64,000 nt of DNA, from the NCBI GenBank assembly GCA_017632945.1, contig JAGBQH010000001.1:6198-70197 (forward strand), read 5' to 3'. Positions 12,757 to 64,000 of this stretch are shown here, piece by piece. How positions within the stretch are numbered: the stretch's first letter is position 1; every line of letters starts with the position of its first letter. This stretch comes from Aeriscardovia sp. (GTDB lineage: Bacteria; Actinomycetota; Actinomycetes; Actinomycetales; Bifidobacteriaceae). A program made the position numbers and the translations under genes. Under the pieces are notes generated by a model that was not told the DNA's origin, made no database searches, and was given only the letters and a program-made list of their open reading frames with translations.

Positions 12757-13938
12757 TTAGCCTAAAAGCAGGCTTCTTAGCCTGGAAGCCCTGTCTGTTC
12801 TTTCCCAGGTAAAAAGTTCTTCTTCTCTGCCAAAATGGCCGTAGCAGGCTGTAGGAGAATAAATCGGCCTCAAAAGATTTAAGTCTCTTATAATAACTCC
12901 CGGCCTAAGGTCGAAAGTCTCTTTTACAGCCTCGAGTATGCGTTCCAAAGAAAGGCCGGGGACTTGAGTGCCAAAGGTTTCAATATCTAGCGCCACGGGT
13001 TCAGCTCTGCCTATGGCATAGGCTATTTGAACTTCCACCCTTTTTACCGCCCCAGATGCCACAAGATTTTTAGCCACCCATCTGGCTGCGTAAGCTCCGG
13101 ATCTGTCGACCTTGGAAGGATCTTTTCCAGAGAACGCCCCTCCCCCGCTCCTTCCGGCATTTCCATAAGCATCAACTATGATCTTGCGTCCGGTTAGTCC
13201 CGTGTCTGCAGCCGGACCTCCCAAAACAAAAGATCCGGAAGGATTGAAGATAAAGTTAAAAGAAGATGCGTCGACTTCGGGTGCCCATTCATCCAGTATG
13301 GGCTTGACCACTTCTTCTTTTACCCTTTCCGACAGCTCTGCCAGCTTGGCTTTGGGGTCATGTTGGGCAGAGACAAGAACAGTGTTAATCCTTTTTGGCT
13401 TAAAACCTTCATAATCTACCGTAACTTGAGATTTGCCATCAGGCCTGAGCAGAGGGAAAACTCCATGTTTTCTCAGATCTGAAAGCCTCATGGTAATCCG
13501 ATTTGCCAGAGTTATGGGCAGGGGCATGAGTACCTTAGTTTCGTCACATGCAAATCCGAAAACTACGCCCTGGTCTCCTGCGCCCTGTTCCTCTTGGCCT
13601 CCGCTCCTTCTCACGCTTTCATCTATCTCCGGACTTTGCGAAGTGATGGAGACCATAACTCCGCAGCTTTGCCAGTCAAGTCCGATGGAAGAATCGGTAT
13701 ATCCAACTTCCCTTACGGTGTTTCTAACTACCTTTTGTACATCGCAGTAGCCTCTTGAGTTCACCTCGCCGCATACCATAAACATTCCTTTGCAGGCTAC
13801 GGTTTCTACGGCCACATGGCTGGATGGGTCCTGGAATAAAAGGTCGTCTAGAACGCTGTCGGAAATTTTATCGCAGAGCTTATCGGGATGTCCTTCCGTC
13901 ACAGACTCGGCGCTCAAAGGGTGAAGGCTACTCGTCAA
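12757..13938 (-). CDS. metK: S-adenosylmethionine synthetase
   Basis: [42 protein letters not shown]. Confidence 0.97.
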
Positions 13939-14367: not shown

Positions 14368-14934
14368 CTAATACAGATTTTTCATCAGGTCCCAGAGAGC
14401 AGAAGCTGCCCTCTCTACTTCATCATTTACTATCACGGCATCGAATTCGCCCTCGTGGGCCATTTCTTCTTTAGCTGTCTTAAGCCTTCTAGCTTTCTGC
14501 TCGGGACTTTCGGTGTCGCGAAGATTTAGCCTGTAAACCAGTGAATCGAAGGTCGGCGGGGCGAGGAATACCGAAAATAGCTTAATGCCCAGCTCCTTTG
14601 CCCTTTTGGCCACACTCCTAGCTCCCTGAAGATCAATCTCCAACAGAGTGGGAATCTGCTCGCGAATATGGTCCAAAACGGGCTGCAGAGGCGTTCCATA
14701 ATGAGCCAGGCCGTGTACGACAGCCGTCTCCAAAAAAAGGCCCTGCTTTTCCCGATTTAGAAATTCTTCCTCGGAAATAAACCAGTAGTCGCGCCCGTTT
14801 TTTTCTCCGGCTCTGGGAGCCCTGGTAGTCGCCGATATGCTTACCCAGATTTCCGGATGCTTTTCTAAAAGAGCCTTTTCCACGGTTCCCTTGCCAACGG
14901 CAGTGGGACCGCTGAGGACTACAAGGGGCATCAT
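14368..14934 (-). CDS. gmk: Guanylate kinase
   Basis: P-loop [27 protein letters not shown]. Confidence 0.95.
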
Positions 14935-16178
14935 CGATCTACTCTGGCCAGTATATAGTTCTTTTTTCCCTTGCGAATAAGAACAAAGCGGCCCTCAAAA
15001 CTGCAGGAAGGATCTACTGTGGCTTCCAAGCTGTCTTCGACTTTTCCATTTATCGACACTGCCCTTGAAGAAACATCCTCCCTTGCCTGCCTCCGGCTCT
15101 TCTCAATTCCCGTTTCCACAAGCAGATCCACAATATTTTTGGGGTCAGCACTTATAGAAACGGAAGGAGCAGAGCCAAAAGCTTCCTCTATTTCTCCTGC
15201 GCTTAGGGAGGCTACATCCCCATTAAAGAGGAGGGTGGAAATTTTCTGCGCTCTTTCAGCCTCCTGCTTGCCGTGCACAAATGCCGTCACTTCATAGGCC
15301 AGTGCCTTTTGGGCAAGTCGAAGATTAGGCCTCTCTTCGGTTTCTTTGGCCAGATTCTCAATTTCTTCCCTGGAGAGGAAAGTGAAGTACTTTAAGTACT
15401 TATCCACATCCCTGTCGTCGGTGTTTATCCAGAACTGGTAGAAGTCATAAGGGCTGGTCATTTTGGGGTTAAGCCACACAGCTCCCCCAGCTGACTTTCC
15501 AAATTTTGTTCCGTCAGCTTTTAGAAGAAGGGGAATGGTTAGTCCGAAAACTTCTGCTTTTGAATACTTATGACGTATGAGGTCTATTCCATCAGTCAAG
15601 TTCCCCCACTGATCGGCGCCTCCGATTTGGAGGGTCACTCCCTCATCTTCAAAAAGATGGAGAAAATCTATCGCCTGCAAGATTTGGTAGCTAAACTCCG
15701 TAAAGGAAATCCCCCCTTCTATCCTGGAGGAGACGCTTTCTTTGCTCAGCATGGAATTGACGGAAAAGTTTTTTCCAAAGTCGCGCAGAAAATCTATCAG
15801 GTTTAATTTTGAGAGCCAGGAATAGTTATCCACTATTTTGAACTCAGGCCCAAAAATCTTTTCCATCTGTTCTGTCAGGCTCTTTTTATTCGCTTCCACC
15901 TGCTCGACGCTTTGAAGCACCCTTTCAGTGCTCCTGCCGCTGGGATCCCCTATGGCTCCCGTAGCTCCCCCAATAAGGATTAGGGGATGATAGCCGTACA
16001 TTTGGAACCTTTTGAGGACAATGAAGGGGATAAGGTGGCCTATATGCAGGGAGGGCCCCGTAGGGTCGGTTCCACAGTAAAGCGAAAGCTTTTCCTTTTC
16101 CAGGGCTGCTTTTAATCCCTCGGGATCGGTCTGCTGGTTTATTAGGCCTCGCCATTGCAAATCTTGCAGAATATCCAT
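14931..16178 (-). CDS. tyrS: Tyrosyl-tRNA synthetase (Firmicutes-like sequence)
   Basis: HIGH motif (SLHIGHLIPF), KMSKS variant KFGKSAG, C-terminal S4 domain. The TGA overlaps the gmk ATG (ATGA). Confidence 0.96.
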   Translation of the reverse strand: MDILQDLQWRGLINQQTDPEGLKAALEKEKLSLYCGTDPTGPSLHIGHLIPFIVLKRFQMYGYHPLILIGGATGAIGDPSGRSTERVLQSVEQVEANKKSLTEQMEKIFGPEFKIVDNYSWLSKLNLIDFLRDFGKNFSVNSMLSKESVSSRIEGGISFTEFSYQILQAIDFLHLFEDEGVTLQIGGADQWGNLTDGIDLIRHKYSKAEVFGLTIPLLLKADGTKFGKSAGGAVWLNPKMTSPYDFYQFWINTDDRDVDKYLKYFTFLSREEIENLAKETEERPNLRLAQKALAYEVTAFVHGKQEAERAQKISTLLFNGDVASLSAGEIEEAFGSAPSVSISADPKNIVDLLVETGIEKSRRQAREDVSSRAVSINGKVEDSLEATVDPSCSFEGRFVLIRKGKKNYILARVDR

Positions 16179-16184
16179 CTTTAT

Positions 16185-18026
16185 TTACTTTTCATCCTTT
16201 AGGCAGGGCTTAAGCACTTCTTTGATAGCTTCCTTTAGTTTTACCTCATAGGAAGCAAAAGATTGGGCATCGTACATCATCAAGTTCATGGCCGACGCTC
16301 TTAAGGTAGTAAGGTGCGAAGAGGAGTCCCACGGTGAAGTAATGCCAATCTTCCTTATGAAGTCTAGGCAACTGTCTCCATATTCCCCTTTAGCAAAGTC
16401 AGTGTGGCTGGTCAAAATGGGTTTTAGATAAGGCATGCCCGAATAAATGGAAGTTTGAATGAAGAAGTTCTGGTTGAGTTCATTCATGGCCTTTAGGTCG
16501 GTATTTCCTTCTATATTGAACACCCAGTCAACCATATTGAAGTCCGGGTAATAAATGGTGTGGGACTTTATCTTTTTCCCTTCTACTTCCACTTCGAGTT
16601 CTGACATGAACTTGTAGAAGTTCCTCGCCCCTTCCATGGACCTGCCGATGATCTTTCCGTAACCTGTAATGTTTAGCGGAAGCACCCTATGAGCTGCCCA
16701 TACCGCGGCTGCGGCCGCTCCGGCCTTGGATCCCTCTAGGATGTAGGGTCCAATTTGGACGGGAGGATCTATAGTCTTGTCGAAAACGTAGGAAGCGAAA
16801 TAGGAAATTGCATTCCTCATCCTTTCGTCCCTTATGACAATCCCGCCCGCAGTGTAGGGGACATATCCCATTTTGTGAGGATCTACCGTTATTGAATCCA
16901 CTTCCGAAAGTGCCTTAAGAGATTCATAGTCATCTTTGGAAATGGTGTTGCTCAAATCCTGGAAGACCTCATTTTCTCTGAGTTCATGCTCGAGATCGGC
17001 ATAGGGGATGACGTCATAGTTGGAATCTAGGATTATGGACCTAGCGTACCCGCCGTAGGCGCAGTCGGCATGCAGATAGAAGTTAATTCCCTTCTTTGCA
17101 AAGTTCTTGCGAAGGGCGCAAATCTTGTCAATGTGGTCTATTGCGCCTTCCTCGGTAGTGCCTACAACTCCTACTACTCCCAGTACCGGTATTTTTTGGG
17201 CGCCAAGATCCTCTATTGTCTTTTCCAATACGTCTATCTTCATCCTGTAGTGATCATCTACAGGAATCATTATGACTTGATCCATTCCGACGCCGGTTAT
17301 ATCGGCAGCCTTAAGCCAGCTGTAGTGCTTAGTTGCCGGAATAATCCACTTGCCCAGGTCCTCTATTCTCTTGCCGCTTCTGGCAGACTTCCTCTTGACC
17401 AGATCAAGATCTACTTCGCTTAGGCCGGACATGAGATCGATTATTTTTTCTATGGGCATATTCAAGAGTTCCCAGTCGCTCTTTCCGGCAACCAGTTCAG
17501 GCTTTACTTCCTTCATGGCCAAAGGAAGGCTCTTTACGTTTCTGGCGTACCAGAGAGCTTCAAGATTGGCTATAGAGCCGTCTGCACAGATATGTCCCCA
17601 GCCGTTGGGGAAGCTAAAGAGCTTGGCAAAATCCCTTCCCACTTCTTCCTCTAGGAAGGAAGTGGCGGGAGATCCTTCGTAGGAAACGTTGTTTTCGTTC
17701 CACAGCATTCCGAAATAGTACCCGAGCAAGGCGGGAATGAGGGTTTCGGAGTTCATGTGGCCCCAGTACCTGGCCGATTCCCACGGCACTGAGCCTTTTC
17801 TCATCCTCACCGACAGTTCTTCCATGACAGTCTTGAGCCTTTGGACCGTCTGCTGGAAGGCGGGAGAAGCCTGCTCGGTGGGAGAAATAAGAGGAGGATC
17901 TTGAGGCATATAGTTTTGCCTCCAACCCAGATGCTCGTCTATCAAATGGCTCAGGAGAGACTTAAAAAGCTCCCCGTTTTCGGATTTGCTTCCGATGAGC
18001 AACGCGTTTATGTCGATTTCCTCCAT
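16185..18026 (-). CDS. tdc: PLP-dependent tyrosine decarboxylase (Enterococcus/Lactobacillus TyrDC type)
   Basis: DEHLGWRQNYMPQDPP, YWGHMNSETL, AMKEVKPELVAGKSDWELLNMP and the PLP-lysine motif TVDPHKMGY. I prefer ATG 18026 (AAGGAG 6 nt upstream) over the track's TTG 18032. Confidence 0.9.
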   Translation of the reverse strand: MEEIDINALLIGSKSENGELFKSLLSHLIDEHLGWRQNYMPQDPPLISPTEQASPAFQQTVQRLKTVMEELSVRMRKGSVPWESARYWGHMNSETLIPALLGYYFGMLWNENNVSYEGSPATSFLEEEVGRDFAKLFSFPNGWGHICADGSIANLEALWYARNVKSLPLAMKEVKPELVAGKSDWELLNMPIEKIIDLMSGLSEVDLDLVKRKSARSGKRIEDLGKWIIPATKHYSWLKAADITGVGMDQVIMIPVDDHYRMKIDVLEKTIEDLGAQKIPVLGVVGVVGTTEEGAIDHIDKICALRKNFAKKGINFYLHADCAYGGYARSIILDSNYDVIPYADLEHELRENEVFQDLSNTISKDDYESLKALSEVDSITVDPHKMGYVPYTAGGIVIRDERMRNAISYFASYVFDKTIDPPVQIGPYILEGSKAGAAAAAVWAAHRVLPLNITGYGKIIGRSMEGARNFYKFMSELEVEVEGKKIKSHTIYYPDFNMVDWVFNIEGNTDLKAMNELNQNFFIQTSIYSGMPYLKPILTSHTDFAKGEYGDSCLDFIRKIGITSPWDSSSHLTTLRASAMNLMMYDAQSFASYEVKLKEAIKEVLKPCLKDEK

Positions 18027-18028
18027 TA

Positions 18029-19549
18029 TCAACTCCTTAATTGATCCTCAGGTTCCATCGAATCTTGAACTATGTCGCTTTCATCTCCCATTCCACGCAC
18101 CAGGCTCGGGCGCAGCTGAACGGCGGGGATGACTCTGTGTTCCCTAGTGTAGTTTTGCAGGTATTTCTGTGCCGTAAGGGCCCAGCGATCCCTGCGGAAG
18201 TGGTGGAGAATAAGCGGGAAGACGGCAAAGATTAAAGTGAAGACTATCATCACTACAGCGCTTGCCCTCGAGCTTGCAGCTATTGCCGTAACAGCTATGA
18301 ATATCAGGCCAGACCAAAGGAAGATAGCCCACATCCATGCCAGGCCGTTTCCTTTCTTACCAATTCTGTAAGGACGCTTTAATTCTTTAGCTTCATATCT
18401 GAGTCGTATGAAAGCTATGGCAATAAGAGTATAAACCACTACGTAAAACATGGTGGTGGTGTTGGTCATTAGCATGAAGATCTGGTTTACATCCGGAAGA
18501 GCGTAAAGTAGAGCGAAGAGAGTGATAAGGCTAGCCTGGGCAATTAGGATAGGCTTGGAGACGCCCAGATCATTGTGCTTGTAGAAGCGCCATGAAGAAG
18601 GAACCAAACCTTCATTTGCAACCTGAATCATGGTCTGGCTGGGGCCGGTAACCCATCCGGAAAGAGCTACGAGCACGCCTATAAAGCTCATGCAGCTAAA
18701 AACGTTGTTAAGCCACTGGGGCCAACCCAGTATCTCGCAGAACAGCACTATGGGCTGGGAAATATTGGCGAGCTGGATGTTGCTGGAAGTGACGACGTTT
18801 GCCATAAGGAAGGCGTCTATTATGTTCATAAGCACAACGGCTATCAGAGCTATCATGAGGCCCTTGGCAAAATTCTTCGTAGAGTTCTTAATCCTAGGGA
18901 TATAAACGCCCAGAGTGGAGATGCCACAGAAGATAAAGGCGATGGAAGCCACATACTGAAGGCTTTCTCCCTGCGGCAAAAGCTCCTGCCAATGGAAAGT
19001 TCCCAGCACCATTCCAGGCTTGATGCCGGTCTTAATCATGGCTCCAAGGCCCAAAACCAGCATAAAGACGACCGGAATGTAAATACCCAACCATGTGCCG
19101 ATATCGCCGCCGATTTTGGCCATATCAAACTTAAGGTTGAGGAGAGTTACGAACCAATAGATAACTATGATGCTGCACATCACAAACCAGTGGTTGTTGC
19201 CAAGGGGAATATTACTTATGGTGTTTCCAAACAACGGTCCCAGGGGAGCTGCTACCATAACCATGCCTGGAAACATCTGAGCCCATAAAAGCCAGGCCAC
19301 AACAAATCCCCATTTATCGCTTAACCCCCTGCGCACCCATCGCTGAGGTCCACCTTCGCCTGGCAGCATGGCTCCAAGCTCTCCACACATCAGCGCCAAA
19401 GGCAAGGCGAAAAACACCACGGAGATGATCATGTATATGATCATCTGCCATCCCGTGGCAGCCAATTGTGGGATGCTTCGCACGGAGGCTATAAGAGCCA
19501 TAGCTATACCTACAAAGGTACTCAGAGAGATTTTAATCTGATCGCTCAT
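18029..19549 (-). CDS. tyrP: APC-superfamily amino-acid antiporter, probable tyrosine:tyramine exchanger
   Basis: 506 aa, about 12 TM helices, GadC/TyrP-like N-terminus. The stop lies 2 nt before the tdc ATG. The substrate is inferred from context. Confidence 0.75.
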   Translation of the reverse strand: MSDQIKISLSTFVGIAMALIASVRSIPQLAATGWQMIIYMIISVVFFALPLALMCGELGAMLPGEGGPQRWVRRGLSDKWGFVVAWLLWAQMFPGMVMVAAPLGPLFGNTISNIPLGNNHWFVMCSIIVIYWFVTLLNLKFDMAKIGGDIGTWLGIYIPVVFMLVLGLGAMIKTGIKPGMVLGTFHWQELLPQGESLQYVASIAFIFCGISTLGVYIPRIKNSTKNFAKGLMIALIAVVLMNIIDAFLMANVVTSSNIQLANISQPIVLFCEILGWPQWLNNVFSCMSFIGVLVALSGWVTGPSQTMIQVANEGLVPSSWRFYKHNDLGVSKPILIAQASLITLFALLYALPDVNQIFMLMTNTTTMFYVVVYTLIAIAFIRLRYEAKELKRPYRIGKKGNGLAWMWAIFLWSGLIFIAVTAIAASSRASAVVMIVFTLIFAVFPLILHHFRRDRWALTAQKYLQNYTREHRVIPAVQLRPSLVRGMGDESDIVQDSMEPEDQLRS

Positions 19550-19658
19550 TTGCTTTACTCTTTTTCTTACTTGTGGGAACTGGGATTATGAAGTCCCTGG
19601 GCGCAAAAACCTTCCTGATTTGTGATGGTCTAAGGCAACTGCGCACCAAAACTCTCGA

Positions 19659-20114
19659 TTATACCTTCAATTCTATACTTTTTGGCCCTTCACCCTTATC
19701 TCCCCTGTTTCTTCCGGAAGCTGCACACAAAACGCCGTATATAAAGTTCACACTTTTACTATCACAATAGATTTTTGCGAGCTTTACAGATTCGTTTATA
19801 TACGCTCCCGTAGATCCGGGCTGGCCGTAAAGACACTCCCATACCCCCATACGCAGGATATTCCTGTCTACCACCCCCATCCTCTCTAACTTCCATGTAG
19901 AGTTGGCACGGATAATCCTGTCTATCTCTTCCTTATGGGCTGCCACGCCCTCCGCTATTTCTTTTGCATATTCAGGCAGAACTCTAAGATCTGTTACCAC
20001 TCCTTCTTCCTGAATTTGCAGCCTCTCTCGAAGGGCGTCTTCAATACTTTCATCTCTCTCATCGGCCTCATAAAGAACGCTGAGAGCCTCCATTCTGGCG
20101 GCAAATCTCGACAT
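19659..20114 (-). CDS. nusB: Transcription antitermination factor NusB
   Basis: RMEALSVLYEAD.., VVDRNILRMGVWE, INESVKLAKIY..SVNFIYGVL. It lies directly downstream of efp. Confidence 0.88.
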   Translation of the reverse strand: MSRFAARMEALSVLYEADERDESIEDALRERLQIQEEGVVTDLRVLPEYAKEIAEGVAAHKEEIDRIIRANSTWKLERMGVVDRNILRMGVWECLYGQPGSTGAYINESVKLAKIYCDSKSVNFIYGVLCAASGRNRGDKGEGPKSIELKV

Positions 20115-20117
20115 TCC

Positions 20118-20678
20118 CTATTCCCTGCTCAGGTAAGATCCGTCCCTGGTATCGACCTTTATTTTTTCACCCTCGTTTATAAAGAGGGGCACTTGTATCT
20201 CAGCTCCAGTTTCCAGAGTGGCAGGCTTATTTCCGGCGCTGCTTCTGTTGCCCTGAAGGCCGGGCTCGGTGTGAGTGACTTCCAGCACTACCGAAGCGGG
20301 AAGCTGCACGGCAATGGGGTTCCCTTCAAAGAAGCTAACTATGCAGTCTGTTCCTTCTACAAGGTACTTTATCTGGTCTCCCAAAAGCTCTTCGGGAATG
20401 GCAACCTGATCGTAGGAAGAAGTATCCATGAACATCAGGTTAGATCCATCTTTGTAGCTGTACTGGAGGTTGCGGTTGTCGAGAGTGGCAAAGTCCATCT
20501 TCACTCCGGCGTTGAAGGTGCGCTCTACCTGTTTTCCGCTTAGAACGTCCTTTATGGTAGTCCTTACAAAGGCAGGGCCCTTTCCAGGCTTTACATGCTG
20601 GAATTTCACCACCCTCCAAAGCTTGCCGTCGATGTTAAGAATCGATCCATTTTCAATATCATTTGTAGTCTGTGCCAT
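20118..20678 (-). CDS. efp: Elongation factor P
   Basis: [19 protein letters not shown], 186 aa. Confidence 0.97.
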
Positions 20679-20748
20679 TAAAAGTCCTTCACAGCAATCA
20701 GTAAATTTAAACCTTTAACACTTTAGATTAATTCACACGCGTGTCAAA

Positions 20749-20780
20749 GAAAAAATAAAACCCCAGAACGCCCTGGGGTT
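20749..20780 (-). terminator. Rho-independent terminator of tuf
   Basis: The minus strand reads AACCCCAG-GGCGTT-CTGGGGTT followed by TTATTTTTT, about 20 nt after the tuf stop. Confidence 0.75.
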
Positions 20781-20800
20781 TAGGGAAGCGAATCCTTAAA

Positions 20801-46422: not shown

Positions 46423-47507
46423 TCCCCCGAAATCTCCGCTTCCTCGTCCATGCGTATGCCAGAATCTATAACGTCTTGGAGGCGCCCCTCCATCACCTGG
46501 TCAAGGTCATAGGCCTTGTATCCGGTCCGGTGGTCTACAATCCTGTTTTCCGGAAAATTGTAGGTGCGGATTCTTTCGGATCTGTCCAGGCTGCGGACCT
46601 GGGAGTGGCGCATATCGGCCGCCTTTGCCGCTTCCTCCTCTTTTTTCAAAGCCAGAAGGCGCGACTTTAAAACCCTCAAAGCCGCGGCCCTGTTTTGGAT
46701 CTGGCTTTTTTCATCCTGCATGTTTACCACAATCCCCGTGGGAATATGGGTCATCCTCACAGCTGAGTAGGTAGTGTTCACGCTTTGGCCTCCCGGCCCG
46801 GAGCTCATGAAGGTATCAATTTTAAGGTCTTTGGGATCTATTTCGATTTCATCGGAATCTTCTTCCACCTCGGGGAAAACCAGAACCCCTGCCGCAGAAG
46901 TTTGAATCCTTCCCTGCGATTCTGTGACCGGAACCCTTTGGACCCTGTGCACGCCGCCTTCGTATTTCAGGTTTGCCCATACGCCCTGGGCGGGGCTGGA
47001 AATATTTTTTGATCTGAAGGCGATCTGGGCGTCCTTTATTCCTCCCAGCTGCGTGACGGACTGGGACTGAATTTGGACCTGCCAGTCTTTAAGCTGGGCG
47101 TAGCGGATATACATTCGCATGAGATCGGCCGCAAACAGGGCCGCTTCTTCCCCGCCGGTGCCGGCCTTTATCTCCATAATTACGTTCTTTGCGTCATCGG
47201 GATCTCTTGGGTGAAGCATCCTTTTAAGATCCCCCTCTTTTTGGGAGATTTTTTCTTCCGTCTCCCTCGCTTCCTCTTCAAAGGAGGGATCTTCTTTCGC
47301 GAGCTCTTTGGCGGCCTCAAGATCCTGGCACATAACCTTAAGGTCTCTAAGGCACTCTACCGCCCCTTCCAGCTCTGCGTGGCGCATAGCCAGTTTTTTA
47401 ATCTCCTTTGTGTCGGAGGTTTTCGACATTTTCTCTTCTATTTCCCTATACTCTTTTTCCGCCTTGATGGCCATAGGGTATTTTTCCTCAAAACTTTTAG
47501 CTGTCAT
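46419..47507 (-). CDS. prfA: Peptide chain release factor 1
   Basis: [14 protein letters not shown] (PxT motif region), [11 protein letters not shown] (GGQ). The start is uncertain among 47546, 47507 and 47474. Confidence 0.93.
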
Positions 47508-49086
47508 ACATCTCCTCTTCTTGGTTTGGATCGCTTGTACCGTCAAGAATATCTTGGATGTCCAAGTTGTCCTGATCTAAGAGATCTTTAATCGGCATGG
47601 AGTCGATGCCGCTCCCGGGTCCGAGAGCGGAGTTTATTCCCTTTCGTTTGTCTGTGACTTTCTTGTCGATCCTGTCTATAAGGCCGGTGGTGAAGTAGGA
47701 AATTACGGCTATGATGGCTATCACCCTAAGATCGCTAAAGGAAGTCACTTCCACTGCAAGCACAACTGCCGTAAGGGGCTTTTTTATTACAGATCCAAAC
47801 AGGCCCCCGAGGCACCCTACACCTATAAGCGAGTAGAAAGCGAGGCTTGAAGGGGCAAGGTGGAGCGCTGCAAAAATTTTTCCGCAAAATAGGCCGTATA
47901 TGATTCCCAAAGAACATATTGGAAGGAAAATGCCGGAGGGCGCTCCCGATCCATAGGAAATCTGGGCAAAAATCAACCTCAAAATTATGTATATGAAAAG
48001 AAGCCATATCGACACCTTGGCCGCTCCTACGGAAAGGTCGCGGGCAAGGAAGCTTCCATCTCCCAAAGTGGCCGGAAGGTAGAGGCCTATCGGGATGGAA
48101 AGCACGAGGGGAATAAACATGCGGAGCCTGTGGGGAATGTGGAGCTTATCGTAAATCCCAACTCCCCATGCCAGCGTTTTTTCATAGGCATATCCCAAAA
48201 TCCCGCACCCCAGCCCTATGGGTATCAATTCCCAGTAGAGATGAAGGGCGAGGTGGATGGGATGGATGAGGATAAAGTCGGGGCTGGTGCCCAAAATCAG
48301 GATGGTGATGTATCCGCTTGCCACACTTGCCACAAAGGAAGCGAGGATGGTAGAGAGTGGGTACTGGAATTTCTTCCTATTTAGGTAGTCTCCTTCGATT
48401 AAAAACAGAGTAGCCGCGATGGGCGCGGTAAAAGCTGCTGCCAGGCCCGCTGCCAGGCCCGCTGCCACGAGCTGGCGCCTGTGGGATTTAGTAAAGCCGG
48501 TAGCATCTGTAATGGCAAGTCCGACCGTGGCCCCCATTTGAATTGACGGCCCCTCGCATCCCAGGTATAGGCCCGAAGAGAGGGCTAGGGTCCCTCCAAC
48601 AAACTTTCTCCACAACAGCCTCCACCAGTTCCACCATGTGGGTTCAAACGAGTGAAGCCTGGCTTCCACGTCGGCCGCTCCCGAGTAGGCCACAAGCGGG
48701 GCGCTTCTTATGATCCAGGCTATAAAGAGGCTTACCGCAAGGCTCACAGCCACTATTAAAATCAACCACCACCAGTGCCCCATGCGTATGTATTCGTAAA
48801 GATCTCTTACATAGCCGACCAGAATGCCGGTGATAAGCCTAAACAGGCCAACTACCGCTCCTACAAGTACGCCGTCCAGCGCGGCCCAAAGCAAAATCTT
48901 TAGAGACGGATTTCCGCTGTCGAGCATTTTGGAGAGGAAAGAGTCCCATGAGGAAAGCTTTCTTCGCCTTATATGAAAGGCGGATGGATTTTTGTGGGGG
49001 ATGGGGCTGTTGGCGGGAATATCTTTGGCTTTACTGGATATAGATAAAGTGTTTTCTGCATTGGGTAAAGATGGCTTATCGCTCAT
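47497..49086 (-). CDS. ClC-family chloride channel/antiporter
   Basis: [10 protein letters not shown] and GAPSGIFLP motifs, multi-TM, no CBS domains. ATG 49086 (RBS GAAGGGAAAG) is preferred to the track's TTG 49110. Confidence 0.85.
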
Positions 49087-49150
49087 TACTTTCCCTTCGC
49101 TATTCCTCAACTGATTACCCTACAATGATATCCACCCGCAGGCATGCGAA

Positions 49151-56858: not shown

Positions 56859-59800
56859 TTAAAACCCGTGCTTCTTTGAAAAAGTGCCAGAAGAGGTATG
56901 CCTCTTCTTCCTAATTCCCCACCACACTCCTGCCCCCAAAAGGAAGAGGAAGGAGGAGGAAAGAGAAAGAGACAATATGCCTTTTCCTCCCGTTAAGGGA
57001 AGACGGGGGGTGGGAGTAGGAGTGGGAAGCGGGATACCGCAAAAATGGTCAGATCCCTTCAGGACAGAATCTGCCTTAAAGGCAGAAGAATAAGAAGACT
57101 GATTTATTATTCCAAGATATCCATCTTGAACCTTCCACTGAAAAGAGCCCGGCACGTTACCAGTACCCTGCTCATTTTCGGTATTATCAATCGATCCCTT
57201 TCCCTCCAAACTTTCCGGCGAGGAATAAGAAAGGGAACCGGTAAAGGAAATCGCGGGATACTGGGTGCTCTTTACAGTGTATGTCCCGTCTTGCAATCCC
57301 CCAAAGGAATAGATCTCACTTTCAAAACTAGTGCTCTTCTCAACAAAGTCGTAAGGGGAAGAAGAAAACTGCCAGCCTTCAAAAGTACCGCCGTCTTCTA
57401 CAGGAGTGAGGTACTGGCCCGAAGAATTTTGAACTGTAAACTGTGTCAGATTGGCCATTTCAAGATCGCACTCAGACACAATAATGAGGTTTATAAACCA
57501 GAGGCCCATAGAAGAAGAAGGGGAGGAAGTGGGGGGATTAGGGGCGGATGCACTATTGGTATTTGCCCACTGGGTCATAGAATTGACATACTCTGAGAGG
57601 GCGGAGGGGAGGGAATTGTCTGCAGGGCCGTTAGTTTCAACCTCCGGCGTCAGGAGAAGGTTGGAATAAGACTTGGGCGGTATATACTTTAGACTGCTTG
57701 AGTTAGAGGCAAGTATCGGATCCATTTTATATGTGAAATTGTAGGTGGAAGAGGCTGAGGAAGTAAAGGAAGTGTTCAGGTAGGCCTGCCACTCTATGGA
57801 GAGGGTGTGGTTGGTCACCCCGTTTTGAGTAAGCATACCCGAAGAAGGCAGAGGAAGACTTCCCTTGCTGATTATTTCCGCTATGGCCGCAGGGTTTAAA
57901 GTTACTTTGAGGCTGGAACTTGAAAGCGAAACCGAGGCCCCCTGAAGGGAGGAAATGGGAAGTCCATTTGCCTTAAGGCTGCTTTGAACTATGGTTTGAC
58001 CAGGGATCGAAAGGGAGAAGACGACGTCAGTTGCATTGGGTACCGACTGCAGATGATCGCTTCCCTTCAATATAGATCCCCTTTCATTGGCAAAAGCGGA
58101 AGAAAACTCTTGCTCAAAATTTGCATTGCCGTATGGAAGATAGGCTTCAGCCTGGTAGGTATAGGGAAAGTCTGATCCTACTGTGGAAGTGAAGTTGGAA
58201 GAAGAAAGGGAAGAATCTTCCACTCTGGATACTGAGGGATTTTCGGCTCCTACAACGACCTGTTGTAGATAAGCGTCACCAGGGGATGACGAAATGTAAT
58301 TTAGAAATCCGTTAAAAGTCAGACCCCATGAACCAGCATAAAAACTGTCAGGATCTCCTAGATTTTCTAGGGGAGACGAATACTCTATAGTGGGAGCCTG
58401 GTAGTAGGAACCGTAAGAGACGCTCTGTCCTTCCTGGTTTACTCCTGATATAGGGGTTATGTTACAGGTTACATCCCGATCTGGAGTTACAAATATCTGC
58501 ACTTCGGATCCCTCAAAGGTAAGGGTGTCGCCCTGGGAGGAAGTTGCAACTTGGGTTCCCGAAGGGACTCCGATGTCTCCGAGCGGGACATTGGAATTTG
58601 AATCCGTATATACGTAGGGTATGGAGTTTGTAGGATTGCCCATGTTATAGCTATAGGTAGAGTAACTATCAACAAGCACCGTTACCGACTTTAAGGGTTT
58701 CCCATCTTGTCCCACGGCAGGAAAAGACATTTCCCCGTTTGCCGCCGCTTCGTTTATAGTCTCCCTTCCCCTAGGCGCCTTTTTCGTCAGCACAGTACCC
58801 TGGGAAGGTTTGGACACAAGAGAGCTTTTTAAACCAGAAGAATTAGGAGAAGACTTGCCGTCGGGAGCGGAAGATGAAGACACCTCAGGCGCCAGCCCCA
58901 CTTTTTTCCCTTCAGGGTTCTTCTCCCCCCATGCTTCGTACTCAAATTCAAAAGACGAAGAAGGGGATTCTTTGGAGGAAGGGTCTAAATAGGCCTCAAA
59001 GGTTATGGCTATTTCCCTGTTTGCATTTCCCTCTTGGGTTAGGGGGGAAGTGGAAGGGAGGGGGACTTCCCTTTTTTCCTCTATGGTTTCAAGCGCCAGA
59101 GGGGAAAAGGCAATGGAGGAAGAAGAGGAGGAGAGGGAAGCCCCCTTTAATGATGAGAGAGGAATCCCGTTTACTTTTATGCTTCCTTTTACAAGAGTTT
59201 GAGAAGAGAGGAAAAGGGAGAAAACGAGGGGAGTCAAAGAAGCGACCTTCCCCTTTGCATTCTTTCCCGCTTGAGCGAAAGGAAGGAAGCTTTCGACTTG
59301 ATAAGTGTAAGGGTGGGAAGAGCCGGGCAGCGAAGTGAAAGGAGAAGAAGATGCTTTGCTCCCCTCTATCCTTTCCGAAGACGGGTTAAGGGACCCCACA
59401 GTAACTTCCTTTTCCTTCGCATTTACAAATCCGCAGGGGTCAGAAACCGAAGTCAGGGTTTCAGAATTTGAAGAGAGGTTTACTTCAAATGTGGGAGAAA
59501 GAAAATAAGAGCCGTAAGAAAGAGTCTTTCCGCTTTCGCTTTCTCCCCCCTGCACGGTAAGGTCGTACTTCCCGGGCTTTGCCTCAAAGGAAAACGCCCC
59601 GTTTTCCGTATGCGTTAAATCTATCAAGTCTCCCTTTTTGGAGTAAGAAACCGTCGATCCCTTTGGAACGCTAAAGGAAGAGGGGGAGGGGGAAAGCGAG
59701 GAAGCGTTGGAAGAGTTGGTAGAGGGGGAAGTTAAAAGCAGCTTCACCTCCTTAACTTTTTGTCCGTTTTCTCCTTCCGCCCTAAAGTAGAGCTCTTTAA

Positions 59801-59978
59801 AGTCAGAATTGGCGGCGGAGGAAGAAGGAGAAACCGAGGGCGTCTGCGGGGAAGACTTCTTTACCGCAGCCATGGCCGCAAAGGCTACCCCAGTCCCTAT
59901 ACCTCCGGCCACCAATACGGCTACTGCAGAAAGCAGGGCTATTAATTTCTTTCTTTTTTTAATTCTCCTCTTTTTCAT
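56859..59978 (-). CDS. LPXTG-anchored serine-rich surface protein with duplicated ~320-aa modules and a C-terminal SpaA/Cna-B-like domain
   Basis: Signal peptide MKKRRIKKRKKLIALLSAVAVLVAGG. Sortase signal LPLTG (56988..57002) plus TM helix plus basic tail. FTVQNSSGQYLTPVEDGGTFEGW...GLQDGTYTVKSTQYP resembles pilin/adhesin prealbumin-fold domains. Confidence 0.85.
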   Translation of the reverse strand: MKKRRIKKRKKLIALLSAVAVLVAGGIGTGVAFAAMAAVKKSSPQTPSVSPSSSAANSDFKELYFRAEGENGQKVKEVKLLLTSPSTNSSNASSLSPSPSSFSVPKGSTVSYSKKGDLIDLTHTENGAFSFEAKPGKYDLTVQGGESESGKTLSYGSYFLSPTFEVNLSSNSETLTSVSDPCGFVNAKEKEVTVGSLNPSSERIEGSKASSSPFTSLPGSSHPYTYQVESFLPFAQAGKNAKGKVASLTPLVFSLFLSSQTLVKGSIKVNGIPLSSLKGASLSSSSSSIAFSPLALETIEEKREVPLPSTSPLTQEGNANREIAITFEAYLDPSSKESPSSSFEFEYEAWGEKNPEGKKVGLAPEVSSSSAPDGKSSPNSSGLKSSLVSKPSQGTVLTKKAPRGRETINEAAANGEMSFPAVGQDGKPLKSVTVLVDSYSTYSYNMGNPTNSIPYVYTDSNSNVPLGDIGVPSGTQVATSSQGDTLTFEGSEVQIFVTPDRDVTCNITPISGVNQEGQSVSYGSYYQAPTIEYSSPLENLGDPDSFYAGSWGLTFNGFLNYISSSPGDAYLQQVVVGAENPSVSRVEDSSLSSSNFTSTVGSDFPYTYQAEAYLPYGNANFEQEFSSAFANERGSILKGSDHLQSVPNATDVVFSLSIPGQTIVQSSLKANGLPISSLQGASVSLSSSSLKVTLNPAAIAEIISKGSLPLPSSGMLTQNGVTNHTLSIEWQAYLNTSFTSSASSTYNFTYKMDPILASNSSSLKYIPPKSYSNLLLTPEVETNGPADNSLPSALSEYVNSMTQWANTNSASAPNPPTSSPSSSMGLWFINLIIVSECDLEMANLTQFTVQNSSGQYLTPVEDGGTFEGWQFSSSPYDFVEKSTSFESEIYSFGGLQDGTYTVKSTQYPAISFTGSLSYSSPESLEGKGSIDNTENEQGTGNVPGSFQWKVQDGYLGIINQSSYSSAFKADSVLKGSDHFCGIPLPTPTPTPRLPLTGGKGILSLSLSSSFLFLLGAGVWWGIRKKRHTSSGTFSKKHGF

Positions 59979-60147: not shown

Positions 60148-63100
60148 TTAGAATCCGTGCTTCTTTGAAGAAGAGTCTAAAGAGGCATGGCTCCCTCTCT
60201 TCTTTTTAAGGCCCCACCACACTCCTGCCCCCAAAAGGAAGAGGAAGGAGGAAGCCAAAGAAAGGCCCAGAACTCCCTTTCCTCCCGTAAAGGGCAGGTG
60301 GGAAGGAGCGGAGGGAGCAGGAGCAGGAGTCGGGCCGCCGGGGTTTATGTAGCAGGCAGATGAAGCGCTTCCCTTTAGATTTGACGTAGGAAGGGGAGGA
60401 GGACCTGACCAATCTGTTTCTCCTCCCTGTATATCGGAGTAATCCAGATATCCTCCGGAGATATACCAATTAAAGGACCATGCCCCTCCACGGGCTTCGG
60501 GATGTCCCCAAGTTACACTCGCCGTCCCTTTCCCTTCAAGGATCTGGGGAGAAGAGTAGGAAAGGGAGCTTGTAAAGGATAGGGAGGAAGGATACTCCAC
60601 GCTCTTTACGGTGTAAGTTCCGTCTGCAAGCCCTCCCCACTCGAAGTCTCCTGAAGAGTTTCTTTCTTTAAAGTCGTAGGGGGAACCCGACCATTCCCAT
60701 CCCTCAAAGGCCCCGTCGCTTTCCACAGGGGTTAAGTACTCTCCCGAGGGGTTTTGAACCGTAAATTCAGTGGGAGAATACGAATCCGAATCAGCAATGC
60801 TGCATCCTTTATTGTTATCCTTGGGGTTTTCAAAGGTGTTTTCAAACCACAGTCCCGTAGCAGAAGAGGGGTCGGAGGCGGAAAGGGAAGAAGGGAGGGA
60901 GTCGTCGGAGGGTCCGTTGGTGTAGATCTGGGGGAGGGGCACATTATTACTACCTGTCTCTTCTGTACGCCAAATACATTGTAAATACTTTTTACCCTCA
61001 AAAAGGTCGAAATCTGGCTTCAAGTATGCCTTGAAAGTCACGGAAAGGATCCTTCCTCCGTCCAAGGGGGAAGAGCCTACGGGAGATGTGGCAGTGGCGG
61101 GCATAAAGCCGTGCGAAGCAATATAATCAAGCACTGCTGGACCCAGAGCCAGATGCAGATACAGAGAACCTGATGAGGTAACGTTGTTATAGCCTTGCTG
61201 GGGAAATAATTTTTGGAGAGTAGAAAATGGGATTCCATCAACTTGCATATCCGAATCTATCAAACCAATTGCTTGTGGATTTACGATCATAATTAGGCTC
61301 CATATACCGGCAAGTTGAAGAGTGCCTCCATCCGGTGCCGTGACTGCCGAGTAAGGGAGGACAGTTTGGTATTGATAGGTGAAAGAGTTGTCCTCTCCCA
61401 CGGTTTCAGTGGGGTAATCAGAGGAGTCTACCTTTCCATTTGGGAGAAGAATTTGGATAGAAGGATCATCAGCCACAATAACCGTTCTTGTGACTGGGTT
61501 GAAGAGTCCGTTTCCACCCGAGCCGCCAGTAAATCCAAGAGCACCCGTGACTGCAAGATCCCCGTTTATAACGCATAAGTCCCGTGCGGTGCCCTGAGTG
61601 CACATAGAAGCATTCTGGGGAACCCACATGGAAAACATCCATGTATAGCCATACGCGTTTTCATAGGGCCGCCCTTCCCATACCGCTACGGTAATTCCCG
61701 TAGTCTTTATATCGTCAATCAATGAAGAAGGCAGGATAAAGAGACCTGGATGTCCGGCAACAGAGGTAAGGGTCACTGAATTATATGAATTATTTACTTC
61801 ACTATGGAGGTTATAAGGTGCATTAACCAGAGATTTACCCAGGCCCCACTTTATGGTGATTTTTTCAAGTCCCTTCCCATTTTCCGAAATTGCCCGAAAC
61901 CACGGCTGATATGGCTGGTATAGTGCAGACCCTTTTGCAAAGTCTCCCGTGAGAGTCTGTCCCTTTTCCCCTTGGGCGGAGTTGGAGTAGGAGGCGGACC
62001 ACCCTATTTCGTCTCCCGCCTTAAAGGAGGAAGCGAAGTATGCCGGGATCTCTATTGACAGGGTCCTGTCTGTAACGTCCCCGGAAGTGAGCTTTACCTT
62101 GCCCCCGGGGGAAGAAGAAGTGGCGGGCATGTACCCGTTTTCCTCTATGTAGGAGAGGGCCTCGGAGTCCAGGGAAATGGAGTTTCCGCTTAGGGAAGCG
62201 CCCTCCCCCTCAAGAAGGGAAAGGGGGAGGCCTGAAATAGAGGCCTTTGAAAGGTCCAATCCGTAGCCCTCTCCCGGATTAAAGGAGAGGGTCAAAGGAG
62301 ATGAATAGGGGAGGAAGGTTGAAAGCTGGTAAGAAAAGAGGTGGCTTTCCCCCGTCTCGGCCTTTGGGGCGTTTTGGGTTTCCTCCCCTTGGGAGTTTAA
62401 GGGGGAGGAAGAGGGGTTGGAAGAGTCTGTCACCACCGTATACGAAGAGGCATCTACAAAGCCGTCGGGGTCGTTTTCCGAAGTGAAAGATTCAGATCCA
62501 TTTGTTCCCAAAGTAATCTTAAAGGAAGGGTCCGCGAGTTCGGATCCTTCGCCAGCAATAGTCACGGTATATGTGCCAGGAACGAGATATGGAATATCAA
62601 AAGTGCCTGGTTCTCCAGAAATGGAGTTTAGAGTGACGAGGGCACCGTTGAAATTACCCTCCCATCCGAAAAATCTGTAGGGGGAGGGAGGAGAAAGGTT
62701 GAGGGAATCCGAGGCATCTTCTACGGCGGAATTATTTAAATCTTCCGGATCCCAATAAGCGGGAACAATATCAGCACCAATCCAATTTCCGTTCAAGCCT
62801 ATAGGCCACGGGTATGAATCGGGCATAATAGTTACAGACACCTCTTTCAAGGGTTTTCCGCTCTGAGATATTGCTCTAAAATGCGCGGAAAATTGCTGGA
62901 ACACCCATGGATAGGATGCTTCCTTCTTTCCCACATAGGAAATTTGGTAAGAAGGAGGAGTATATACCTCTACATCGTCGAAGAAGTAAGCTGGGTCGCT
63001 TTGAGGATATCCTAACCCAGAGGCCAAAAAATACATCAGGGTCTTGGAGAGCCCCAGCGTCATTATTACCGGTCCTTCAAGCCCCGGGCCCTGGTAGCCG

Positions 63101-64000
63101 GTCTCTCCGTTTGAGGGGATGGCGTAGTCGAGTATGGAAAGCAGAGAAGAAAGGCCCTGGTAAGTAAGAAGGTTATAGGAGGAAGAGCCCACCTGTGCCA
63201 CGGCTTCGGCGTTCTTCTGGAAGGCGGCGAGGCACGAAGAAGGGGAAGGGGAAGAGAGTCCAAGGGCATGGGCGGCTCCCTCACCGTTAGGGAGGGAAGA
63301 ATTACTGATACAGGAAGAAATTACATAGGCTTCAAAGCTCGGCTCATAGTTATCTATTCCACTGTTGTAGCCAGATAATGATGTTGACACTACGCCTGTT
63401 TGAGGATTTACTCCTCCGAAGAATGCAGCTCCAATTTCCTCTTTTGGGGGTTTGTATGTGGACTCATTATAGGGGGTTACCCCCTCCCCACTGCTTTGAA
63501 GTCCCAGGCTAGTTCCAGAATAAAAGTTCCCGCTTAAAATCCAATTTTGGATTTGACTTTCATCAAGAGCGCCTGAAGAAGTGACGGGGATTGGGTCGAA
63601 GGTGGAGAGATCAAATGGAATTAAGTAGATTCCGGAAGATAGGGAAAGGGCACCTGAATTTTGACTGGGGATTGAGGCGGAACCGATTTGTGAGGAAGAG
63701 ATTGAGGTGGAACTGCTGTTCACCCTTCCTTCTGAGCTCGTTGAACCTGGCAAGACTCCCGCAGGGAGTCCTATAGTAGGGGCATCTGCAAATCCGGAAG
63801 GCGCGGAAGAGATAAGTATCGGATGAAGCCCTATCGCCTTTGTTTCGGATGTCGACTGGAATGAAGCTTTTTTTGAGCCTCTGTCCCCTTCGGCCTCAGC
63901 TTTTCGCCTTCCCTTCAAGGACGGTGAAACTTTTGATGAAGAAGAGGCAGAAGACTTTGCCGCGGCCATGGCGAAGGCCGCCCCTATGCCCCCTCCCGCC
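60148..64000 (-). CDS. Paralogous LPXTG-anchored surface protein (>1283 aa), N-terminus beyond the window
   Basis: LPFTG (60283..60297) plus TM helix plus tail. The frame stays open upstream of the track's Met: 63970..64000 translates AGGGIGAAFA, matching the signal-peptide end GGIGTGVAFAAMAAVKKSS of the neighbour. The true start is therefore beyond 64000. Confidence 0.85.
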   Translation of the reverse strand, partial: AGGGIGAAFAMAAAKSSASSSSKVSPSLKGRRKAEAEGDRGSKKASFQSTSETKAIGLHPILISSAPSGFADAPTIGLPAGVLPGSTSSEGRVNSSSTSISSSQIGSASIPSQNSGALSLSSGIYLIPFDLSTFDPIPVTSSGALDESQIQNWILSGNFYSGTSLGLQSSGEGVTPYNESTYKPPKEEIGAAFFGGVNPQTGVVSTSLSGYNSGIDNYEPSFEAYVISSCISNSSLPNGEGAAHALGLSSPSPSSCLAAFQKNAEAVAQVGSSSYNLLTYQGLSSLLSILDYAIPSNGETGYQGPGLEGPVIMTLGLSKTLMYFLASGLGYPQSDPAYFFDDVEVYTPPSYQISYVGKKEASYPWVFQQFSAHFRAISQSGKPLKEVSVTIMPDSYPWPIGLNGNWIGADIVPAYWDPEDLNNSAVEDASDSLNLSPPSPYRFFGWEGNFNGALVTLNSISGEPGTFDIPYLVPGTYTVTIAGEGSELADPSFKITLGTNGSESFTSENDPDGFVDASSYTVVTDSSNPSSSPLNSQGEETQNAPKAETGESHLFSYQLSTFLPYSSPLTLSFNPGEGYGLDLSKASISGLPLSLLEGEGASLSGNSISLDSEALSYIEENGYMPATSSSPGGKVKLTSGDVTDRTLSIEIPAYFASSFKAGDEIGWSASYSNSAQGEKGQTLTGDFAKGSALYQPYQPWFRAISENGKGLEKITIKWGLGKSLVNAPYNLHSEVNNSYNSVTLTSVAGHPGLFILPSSLIDDIKTTGITVAVWEGRPYENAYGYTWMFSMWVPQNASMCTQGTARDLCVINGDLAVTGALGFTGGSGGNGLFNPVTRTVIVADDPSIQILLPNGKVDSSDYPTETVGEDNSFTYQYQTVLPYSAVTAPDGGTLQLAGIWSLIMIVNPQAIGLIDSDMQVDGIPFSTLQKLFPQQGYNNVTSSGSLYLHLALGPAVLDYIASHGFMPATATSPVGSSPLDGGRILSVTFKAYLKPDFDLFEGKKYLQCIWRTEETGSNNVPLPQIYTNGPSDDSLPSSLSASDPSSATGLWFENTFENPKDNNKGCSIADSDSYSPTEFTVQNPSGEYLTPVESDGAFEGWEWSGSPYDFKERNSSGDFEWGGLADGTYTVKSVEYPSSLSFTSSLSYSSPQILEGKGTASVTWGHPEARGGAWSFNWYISGGYLDYSDIQGGETDWSGPPPLPTSNLKGSASSACYINPGGPTPAPAPSAPSHLPFTGGKGVLGLSLASSFLFLLGAGVWWGLKKKRGSHASLDSSSKKHGF

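Follow-up and report, generated by a model that had tools for sequence, protein, structure and literature searches.

A Lactobacillales-type tyramine gene cluster between nusB and gmk of ruminant-gut Aeriscardovia, probably acquired once and long ago

Results and discussion

A 64,000-nt stretch of the Aeriscardovia sp. assembly GCA_017632945.1 (contig JAGBQH010000001.1; hereafter the window) carries a cassette of three genes encoding a tyrosine/tyramine antiporter-like permease (tyrP), a pyridoxal phosphate (PLP)-dependent tyrosine decarboxylase (TDC; tdc) and a tyrosyl-tRNA synthetase (TyrRS; TyrS, encoded by tyrS), all placed between nusB and gmk in a string of housekeeping genes. We consider it probable that this cassette goes back to a single old acquisition of a Lactobacillales-type tyramine cluster by the ancestor of ruminant-gut Aeriscardovia, and that it is now vertically inherited, ameliorated and embedded between nusB and gmk, with a role in tyrosine/tyramine-based acid resistance. 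The NCBI annotation already names the proteins, and our literature search found no paper linking Aeriscardovia with tyrosine decarboxylase.

The three proteins and their relatives

By family, the product of tdc (16185..18026, minus strand) is identified by sequence comparison as a classical Lactobacillales-type tyrosine decarboxylase. It scores above the cutoff of the corresponding model, TIGR03811 (tyr_de_CO2_Ent; 925.4 bits, cutoff 905.3), covering profile positions 1–605 of 608, and combines the group II PLP-decarboxylase core (PF00282) with the family-specific C-terminal domain PF21391 (146 bits). Alignments with the solved enzymes of Enterococcus faecalis (7cwx, 803 bits) and L. brevis (5hsi, 796 bits) extend from end to end at 57%–59% identity, with the C-terminal domain conserved and the PLP-lysine motif DPHKMGY intact at residue 384, where it aligns with DPHKMGY of 7cwx. 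A set of 19 classical TDCs shares 225 invariant positions, of which the window's TDC keeps 201. The maximal open reading frame (ORF; 16185–18032) opens with a TTG codon at 18032 and would give 615 aa; the ATG at 18026 is the likely start because AGGAG sits 7 nt upstream of it, which agrees with the 613 aa given in a preliminary description of this DNA. The peptide motifs quoted there for the decarboxylase are also found in its translation.

The permease gene, tyrP (18029..19549, minus strand), encodes an APC family protein of 506 aa whose best family by far is the tyrosine-tyramine antiporter model NF040513 (561.9 bits, profile positions 3–464 of 465), the next being GadC with 218 bits. The score lies below the equivalog cutoff of 630, and the protein carries a C-terminal extension of ~40 aa. 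TyrP nevertheless falls within the classical tdc-linked TyrP clade (98%) in neighbor-joining (NJ) trees, as sister to TyrP of Ligilactobacillus, Limosilactobacillus and Companilactobacillus (74% bootstrap), and its identity to Lactobacillaceae TyrP is 54%–57%. The third gene, tyrS (14931..16178, minus strand; 415 aa), encodes a complete TyrRS (TIGR00234, 420.8 bits, cutoff 113.8) with domains PF00579, PF22421 and the S4-like tRNA-binding PF01479, a HIGH motif (...SLHIGHL...) and a KMSKS-type KFGKS. It is of Firmicutes type, matching the solved structures from S. aureus and Geobacillus with 503 and 498 bits and that from M. tuberculosis with 353 bits. Among the named entries in the best 120 TyrS matches, most of which are nameless, the only actinobacterium is Aeriscardovia.

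The nearest relatives of the three proteins outside Aeriscardovia belong to Ligilactobacillus, Limosilactobacillus, Companilactobacillus and Enterococcus (identities of 54%–59% for TDC, 61%–66% for TyrS and 50%–57% for TyrP), and NJ trees place all three within the classical tyrS-associated Lactobacillales clade. The Lactobacillales affinity proposed in the preliminary description is supported by identities and trees alike, and the proteins are not nested in actinobacterial clades. Pairs of tdc and tyrP also occur in B. dolichotidis, Eggerthellaceae, Nakamurella and Microbacteriaceae, that is, in the same phylum or family as the window and with the same protein families; these pairs, however, fall in different TDC and TyrP clades (49%–53% identity), lack a linked tyrS and have another genomic location. 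On this evidence the Aeriscardovia cluster reads as an acquisition separate from the other actinobacterial pairs. TDC homologs of 50%–54% identity also occur in Thermotogae/Petrotogaceae, Chloroflexi and Christensenella, and four loci, from Limosilactobacillus coleohominis (L012), Dialister (L031), Clostridium tarantellae (L041) and a Clostridium metagenome-assembled genome (MAG; L053), have two to three TDC-family paralogs within ~10 kb, some with their own permease.

Insertion between nusB and gmk

The minus strand of the window reads fusA, tuf, efp, nusB, tyrP, tdc, tyrS, gmk, rpoZ, metK, priA, HAD hydrolase and fmt. The cassette is flanked upstream by nusB (19659..20114, minus strand; TIGR01951, 101 bits), itself preceded by the elongation factor P gene efp (20118..20678, minus strand; TIGR00038, 250 bits), and downstream by gmk (14368..14934, minus strand). 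These profile matches uphold the position between nusB and gmk reported in the preliminary description, as do the ORFs at 14931–19549 its three consecutive minus-strand genes for an APC permease, a PLP decarboxylase and a TyrRS. The junctions, measured as tight as had been described, comprise a 2-nt gap between tyrP and tdc with the tdc Shine-Dalgarno (SD) sequence inside tyrP, a 6-nt gap between tdc and tyrS, and an ATGA in which the start of gmk overlaps the stop of tyrS. No mobility genes (integrase, insertion sequence [IS]) were found near the cassette, which is bordered by efp, nusB and gmk. A search for insertion scars in the form of direct or inverted repeats on either side gave only short chance matches, and such scars were rejected.

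When metagenomes were scanned with an alignment of Gmk, many Bifidobacteriaceae contigs came up whose Gmk was 57%–65% identical. Every retrieved Bifidobacteriaceae contig that spans both genes has ~5.8 kb between nusB and gmk, and in three such contigs this segment was identified as carA-carB-pyrF, with no tdc there. Other Bifidobacteriaceae thus have the order efp-nusB-carA-carB-pyrF-gmk, so that the tyramine genes occupy exactly the carAB-pyrF slot. The preliminary description had named pyrR-pyrBC-carAB-pyrF as the content of this place in Corynebacterium/Streptomyces-type genomes; pyrimidine genes are indeed found there, although in Bifidobacteriaceae they are carA-carB-pyrF.

Distribution among Aeriscardovia

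A separate scan, with one genome for each species, recovered TDCs 89%–97% identical to that of the window in six MAGs of Aeriscardovia sp. obtained from the stomach compartments of goats, water buffalo and yaks (L001–L006), which together with the window we call clade A and which come largely from abomasum samples. All six share the gene order efp-nusB-tyrP-tdc-tyrS-gmk-rpoZ-metK-priA-HAD-fmt. A second group, clade B, comprises L008, L009, L081 and L086. Two of its loci (L008 and L086) read efp-nusB-tdc-tyrS-gmk, with the insertion in the same place and no tyrP there, and the two partial contigs agree as far as they extend (efp-nusB-tdc in L009, tdc-tyrS-gmk in L081). The tdc-tyrS spacers of clade B measure 120–165 nt. 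Relative to the window, clade B proteins are 58% (TDC) and 68%–69% (TyrS) identical, values comparable with those of housekeeping proteins (metK 60%, gmk 62%). Altogether the nusB/gmk insertion was found in at least 10 Aeriscardovia assemblies from two deep clades, and the TyrS cluster is present on contigs of up to 340 kb. Conservation of the arrangement in related genomes, which the preliminary description had named as speaking against horizontal acquisition, is therefore what we observe within Aeriscardovia.

Several side observations concern these genomes. Within clade A, identities between species are 95%–99% for TyrP, 89%–97% for TDC, 84%–98% for TyrS, 64%–98% for nusB and 56%–90% for priA. 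Between clades A and B, priA is only 24% and metK 60% identical, and genomes labeled Aeriscardovia sp. (one is labeled Bifidobacteriaceae bacterium) have a locus GC of 42%–67% and a GC content at third codon positions (GC3) of 0.3–0.9 (L001–L006, L008, L081, L086). As this spread of GC and identity is very wide for one genus, the Aeriscardovia label probably covers several genera. In four of the clade A MAGs (L001, L002, L004, L005) the contig breaks inside tuf, at ~3.6 kb upstream of tdc; the assembly probably broke there because tuf is highly conserved or duplicated. Nameless NCBI TyrS sequences nearest to clade A (P0221, P0157) were considered as further Aeriscardovia and rejected, since they are housekeeping genes in Lactobacillaceae-type contexts.

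Orphan and partial copies were also found. Two short contigs of ~60% GC carry a tyrP that is 75% identical to that of the window and has no tdc or tyrS nearby (L082:1584-3011, L083:1791-3218). Their TyrP is sister to clade A TyrP with 100% bootstrap, and they may represent an unlinked tyrP of clade B genomes. A 2.8-kb contig with a GC of 52.5% (L084:1-2758) carries the C-terminus of a permease, a tyrS and a gene of the MFS family, with tyrS and the MFS gene ordered as in L. aviarius; outside Aeriscardovia, clade B has its nearest TyrS relative here (85% bootstrap), and the contig may be close to the donor lineage.

Amelioration and selection

The cassette is fully ameliorated. The GC content of tyrP, tdc and tyrS is 48.8%, 47.7% and 47.3%, compared with 53.9% for rpoC and 50.4% for the whole window; their GC3 is 0.57, 0.57 and 0.51, with 0.562 ± 0.056 in the remaining genes; and their codon-usage log-likelihood z-scores are 0.00, 1.35 and 0.07. 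The preliminary description had put the GC of tdc and the permease at ~38%–40%, which is wrong, and had proposed composition as a test of foreign origin, by which GC and codon usage cannot be told from the flanks. Composition (sliding GC, per-gene GC3 and codon log-likelihood) was accordingly rejected as evidence of foreignness, as it gave no signal.

Across lineages, the GC3 of the cassette follows that of the host flanks over a range of 0.27 to 0.90, being 0.27–0.28 in L008 (flanks 0.31), 0.51–0.57 in the window (0.48) and 0.90 in L081 (0.83). Because this match holds in every lineage, long co-residence is required. Ratios of nonsynonymous to synonymous substitution rates (dN/dS) of 0.01–0.05 for tyrP, tdc and tyrS indicate that all three genes are functional. 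Taken separately, TyrP has a synonymous divergence (dS) of 0.9–1.0 from the most distant species (L003–L005), similar to tuf and efp, and an unremarkable codon usage (z = 0.0).

Origin, age and number of acquisitions

Based on a tree of the linked TDC and TyrS sequences concatenated (1027 columns), the bipartition uniting clades A and B was recovered in 94.5% of 200 bootstraps. Combined with the identical insertion point, this makes one acquisition in the common ancestor the best reading. Under the sequence of events that we propose, this ancestor of ruminant Aeriscardovia would have taken up tdc and tyrS, and also tyrP, the latter from the same group of donors; the cassette would then have been passed on vertically through clade A (as tyrP-tdc-tyrS) and clade B (as tdc-tyrS), and would have lost the donor-type T-box leader and nhaC while being packed into the gene string efp-nusB...gmk-rpoZ-metK. 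Classical tdc clusters reside on plasmids of Staphylococcus, Lactiplantibacillus and Tetragenococcus, indicating that the family is mobile. Of the horizontal acquisition into an essential operon that the preliminary description had proposed, the foreign origin and the insertion among housekeeping genes hold, while the low-GC foreign island, which implied a recent event, does not.

Several points weigh against a single old acquisition with a complete acid-resistance pathway. In single-gene NJ trees, whose deep nodes have weak support, clades A and B remain apart. Derived residues shared by the two clades number two in TDC and none in TyrS, too weak a signal alone, which is why the concatenated tree was used; the grouping in that tree could in turn have been helped by long-branch attraction. 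The databases hold no donor closer than ~55%–66% identity, so that both the identity of the donor lineage and the direction in which the genes moved are judged from their distribution among taxa. The genes carAB-pyrF may have been displaced by the insertion, or may have been lost or moved beforehand. With regard to function, TyrP stays under the NCBIfam equivalog cutoff (562 vs 630 bits), and clade B loci have no linked tyrP, so that a complete pathway is putative there.

These points bear most directly on whether the site was filled twice, with clade A receiving tyrP-tdc-tyrS and clade B tdc-tyrS from different Lactobacillales donors. Such a history would account for the separation of the clades in single-gene trees, where TyrS of clade A groups with the housekeeping TyrS of Lactobacillaceae (78%) and that of clade B with the tdc-linked TyrS of Companilactobacillus and Limosilactobacillus (79%), and for the difference in gene content at the site. 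It would also have to produce, twice, the same insertion point and the same orientation of tdc to tyrS, with T-box and nhaC absent both times; in addition, the bootstrap for A+B in the concatenated tree is high, and the clades differ in TDC (58% identity) and TyrS (69%) about as much as they do in metK and gmk. We therefore regard two independent acquisitions as quite unlikely. A recent event, in which a low-GC island was newly inserted from a Lactobacillus or Enterococcus donor, was implied by the GC values of the preliminary description, although it gave no date. The Lactobacillales affinity of all three proteins and the tdc clusters borne on Firmicutes plasmids would suit this view, but it is highly improbable given a GC of 47%–49% with GC3 and codon usage inside the flank distribution, a best non-Aeriscardovia identity of just 54%–66%, an insertion common to two deep clades whose cassette GC3 tracks the host, and the lack of integrase, IS or flanking repeats.

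The same absence of a compositional anomaly, together with an arrangement conserved in many Aeriscardovia, could be taken to mean that the genes are native to Actinobacteria and vertically inherited, their likeness to Lactobacillales stemming from reverse transfer or slow evolution. This is very unlikely, as other Bifidobacteriaceae have carAB-pyrF and no tdc at the site, the other actinobacterial TDC/TyrP pairs form a different clade without tyrS, TyrS matches the S. aureus enzyme far better than that of M. tuberculosis (503 vs 353 bits) with no non-Aeriscardovia actinobacterium among the named entries of its best 120 matches, and the classical cluster is spread over many Lactobacillales genera with its own T-box. 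Finally, a Lactobacillales fragment could have been chimerically joined to an actinobacterial contig during assembly or binning, as the related genomes are MAGs and the window itself is probably metagenome-derived. However, the same junctions recur in at least 10 independent assemblies from different hosts and projects, actinobacterial genes lie on both sides, GC3 is host-matched and the TyrS cluster extends onto long contigs; the shared junctions by themselves exclude an assembly artifact for practical purposes. A single old acquisition thus stays the probable account of the cassette.

Transcription and regulation

No T-box was detected in the window, either at gathering score or at E ≤ 10, nor in the Aeriscardovia loci L003, L008, L081 and L086, even at E ≤ 10, whereas the positive controls upstream of tyrS in L. 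aviarius (L007, 99.6 bits) and Enterococcus (L085, 96.3 bits) were recovered. A search for T-box or any other Rfam family in the cassette or its spacers, including degenerate remnants in the clade B tdc-tyrS spacers, likewise returned nothing at E ≤ 10. The statement in the preliminary description that tyrS is not preceded by a T-box is borne out, with just 6 nt between tdc and tyrS. With no T-box ahead of it and its stop codon overlapping the gmk start, tyrS probably serves as a constitutively expressed housekeeping gene.

Downstream of tuf lies a terminator-like hairpin (20758..20781, minus strand; 10-bp stem with five GC pairs, then TATTTTTTCT) that is likely the end of the upstream transcription unit, and a promoter-like site upstream of efp (TTGACA-16-TAAAGT, 20720..20747, minus strand; 10/12 matches) is the likely start of the efp-nusB-...-gmk unit. 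From this site to position 13500, through the cassette and gmk, no terminator was predicted on the minus strand, and read-through of the cassette from efp-nusB is plausible on this layout. In clade B, L008 has a strong terminator after nusB and before tdc. The 109-nt spacer between nusB and tyrP in the window (19550..19658, minus strand) may hold an internal promoter and leader. It shows 80% column identity over seven species, though synonymous sites of nusB are saturated, and a TATAAT at 19658–19663 that overlaps the nusB stop codon is invariant in clade A species, making it a candidate internal promoter for tyrP-tdc-tyrS. A conserved structure in this spacer was rejected, as its 5-bp GGYGCG/GCGCC stem showed one-sided changes, no compensatory change and a z-score of −0.63.

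The strongest conservation is found at the start of tyrP. From the SD region to about codon 60 (19370..19575, minus strand), the DNA is near-invariant in the seven clade A species, although synonymous sites of the flanking genes are saturated, and an identical run of 56 nt uses AT-rich rare codons even in GC-rich genomes. At 75% of the degenerate codons whose amino acid is conserved, all species use the same codon, which places this segment at the top of 329 40-codon windows over 12 genes (typical genes 10%–17%, tuf 48%). The few differences within clade A follow the species tree, and the orphan L082 tyrP, 75% identical, varies freely at the sites that are invariant in clade A; together these suggest that a constraint peculiar to clade A, and not a recent exchange, is responsible. 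The region folds more stably than shuffled versions of it (z = −2.66), and the consensus fold pairs the SD sequence AAGAGU with GCUCUU of codons 17–18. It is therefore possible that the segment forms an mRNA structure that sequesters the SD, as modeled here, but the segment has no sequence variation and so no covariation to prove the fold.

Function and substrate

In characterized tyramine systems, electrogenic tyrosine/tyramine exchange is coupled with proton-consuming decarboxylation (PMC12607914), and the same chemistry is expected here. By analogy with Enterococcus and Levilactobacillus, TyrP would swap external tyrosine for internal tyramine, and TDC would decarboxylate tyrosine, using one cytoplasmic proton each time. 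The combined effect would be a higher internal pH and the generation of proton-motive force, which would help the cell in the abomasum and the proximal part of the small intestine. Tyrosine/tyramine antiport and decarboxylation for acid resistance is, on this analogy, the most likely function of the cassette. Abomasum samples are the main source of the clade A MAGs, and the genus is prevalent in the goat duodenum and jejunum (PMC11144141), which makes acid resistance a sensible selective reason.

Alternatively, TDC and TyrP may now act mainly on another aromatic substrate, such as phenylalanine or L-DOPA, or serve energy generation or host signaling over acid resistance. Classical TDCs already accept L-DOPA and phenylalanine (PMC12607914), clade A TDC has a long stem branch (0.30 in the NJ tree), and 24 of the positions invariant in classical TDCs are altered, some non-conservatively (H85E, G113E, Q233A, E337S, K508E, P584L). 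The sub-cutoff score and C-terminal extension of TyrP point the same way. Since TDC exceeds the trusted cutoff of the tyrosine decarboxylase equivalog, and the long-kept linkage to a ligase that charges tRNA with tyrosine speaks for tyrosine as the metabolite concerned, we consider such a shift unlikely.

Beyond acid resistance itself, the cassette may have been domesticated to a greater extent, a possibility that we raise tentatively and with some doubt. The Firmicutes TyrRS would then have displaced the native enzyme and be the sole TyrRS, carAB-pyrF would have been lost with the insertion, and the leader and 5'-coding element of tyrP (~200 nt) would have replaced T-box control. No second tyrS, tdc or tyrP was found within the 64-kb window. 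If true, this would be a case of aminoacyl-tRNA synthetase (aaRS) replacement by hitch-hiking in a catabolic cluster, and the loss of carAB-pyrF would lead to pyrimidine/arginine auxotrophy.

Other genes near the cassette or its relatives may be connected with acid stress. In one clade B genome, an ornithine/lysine/arginine-type decarboxylase with OKR_DC domains lies directly upstream of efp-nusB-tdc (L086:203-2338), which fits an acid-resistance theme. Elsewhere in the window, positions 47497–49110 (minus strand) encode a ClC-type chloride channel/antiporter (PF00654, 224 bits). ClC proteins of E. coli support decarboxylase-based extreme acid resistance, and by analogy the window protein could cooperate with the tyramine cassette. 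Two long ORFs of 1039 and 1273 aa (56859–59978 and 60148–63969, minus strand) had no Pfam match at E ≤ 1e-5 and have an unusually high GC at second codon positions (0.49–0.51); they may encode surface or secreted proteins.

Comparison with known tyramine and acid-resistance systems

The cluster is a well-known tyramine system in a variant that is new in architecture and regulation, and its host is new at the phylum level. In the operon of Enterococcus and L. brevis (tyrS-tdc-tyrP-nhaC, with a T-box before tyrS), the same three families are adjacent and co-oriented, as our Enterococcus control locus (L085, tyrS-tdc-tyrP-nhaC) illustrates. The Aeriscardovia order, in contrast, is tyrP-tdc-tyrS followed by gmk, with neither a T-box nor nhaC or any other Na+/H+ antiporter, and the genes lie in an actinobacterial host within efp-nusB...gmk-rpoZ-metK instead of standing apart on an island or plasmid as an operon with its own regulation. 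The clusters of Ligilactobacillus, Limosilactobacillus and Companilactobacillus, which include some of the closest relatives of all three proteins, are arranged as tdc-tyrP-nhaC-[T-box]-tyrS. As in Aeriscardovia, tyrS comes after tdc on the same strand there, but tyrP and nhaC stand between them, whereas the window has tyrP upstream of tdc. A T-box reached gathering score in one of these loci, that of L. aviarius; the window has none. The non-canonical order noted in the preliminary description is thus real, but since tyrS is downstream of tdc in several Lactobacillaceae, it is less exotic, and the contrast less sharp, than the comparison with Enterococcus suggests.

The GadB/GadC, AdiA/AdiC and HdcA/HdcP modules follow a shared logic, pairing an APC precursor/product antiporter with a proton-consuming decarboxylase, and GadC models are the second-best matches of TyrP. 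They differ in decarboxylase family and substrate and come without a tRNA synthetase. With regard to the latter, L. reuteri keeps a separate housekeeping tyrS, distinct from the tdc-linked second copy. Known cases of xenologous aaRS replacement offer a parallel to a Firmicutes-type TyrRS that is under strong purifying selection within a core operon of an actinobacterium, although replacement is putative here, and the route, by hitch-hiking with a catabolic cluster, would be unusual.

Implications

The cassette offers a clean case of complete amelioration, in which composition-based island detection misses an old transfer. It also bears on why tdc clusters carry tyrS, as tyrS stayed beside tdc across a deep divergence despite the loss of the T-box; in the window it overlaps gmk. 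For the organisms themselves, these results document, for the bifidobacterial family, a tyramine pathway of the classical kind known from lactic acid bacteria, which is a long-standing and conserved trait of a lineage found in or just beyond the ruminant acid stomach. Aeriscardovia joins the candidates in the ruminant gut for making tyramine and, possibly, for converting L-DOPA to dopamine.

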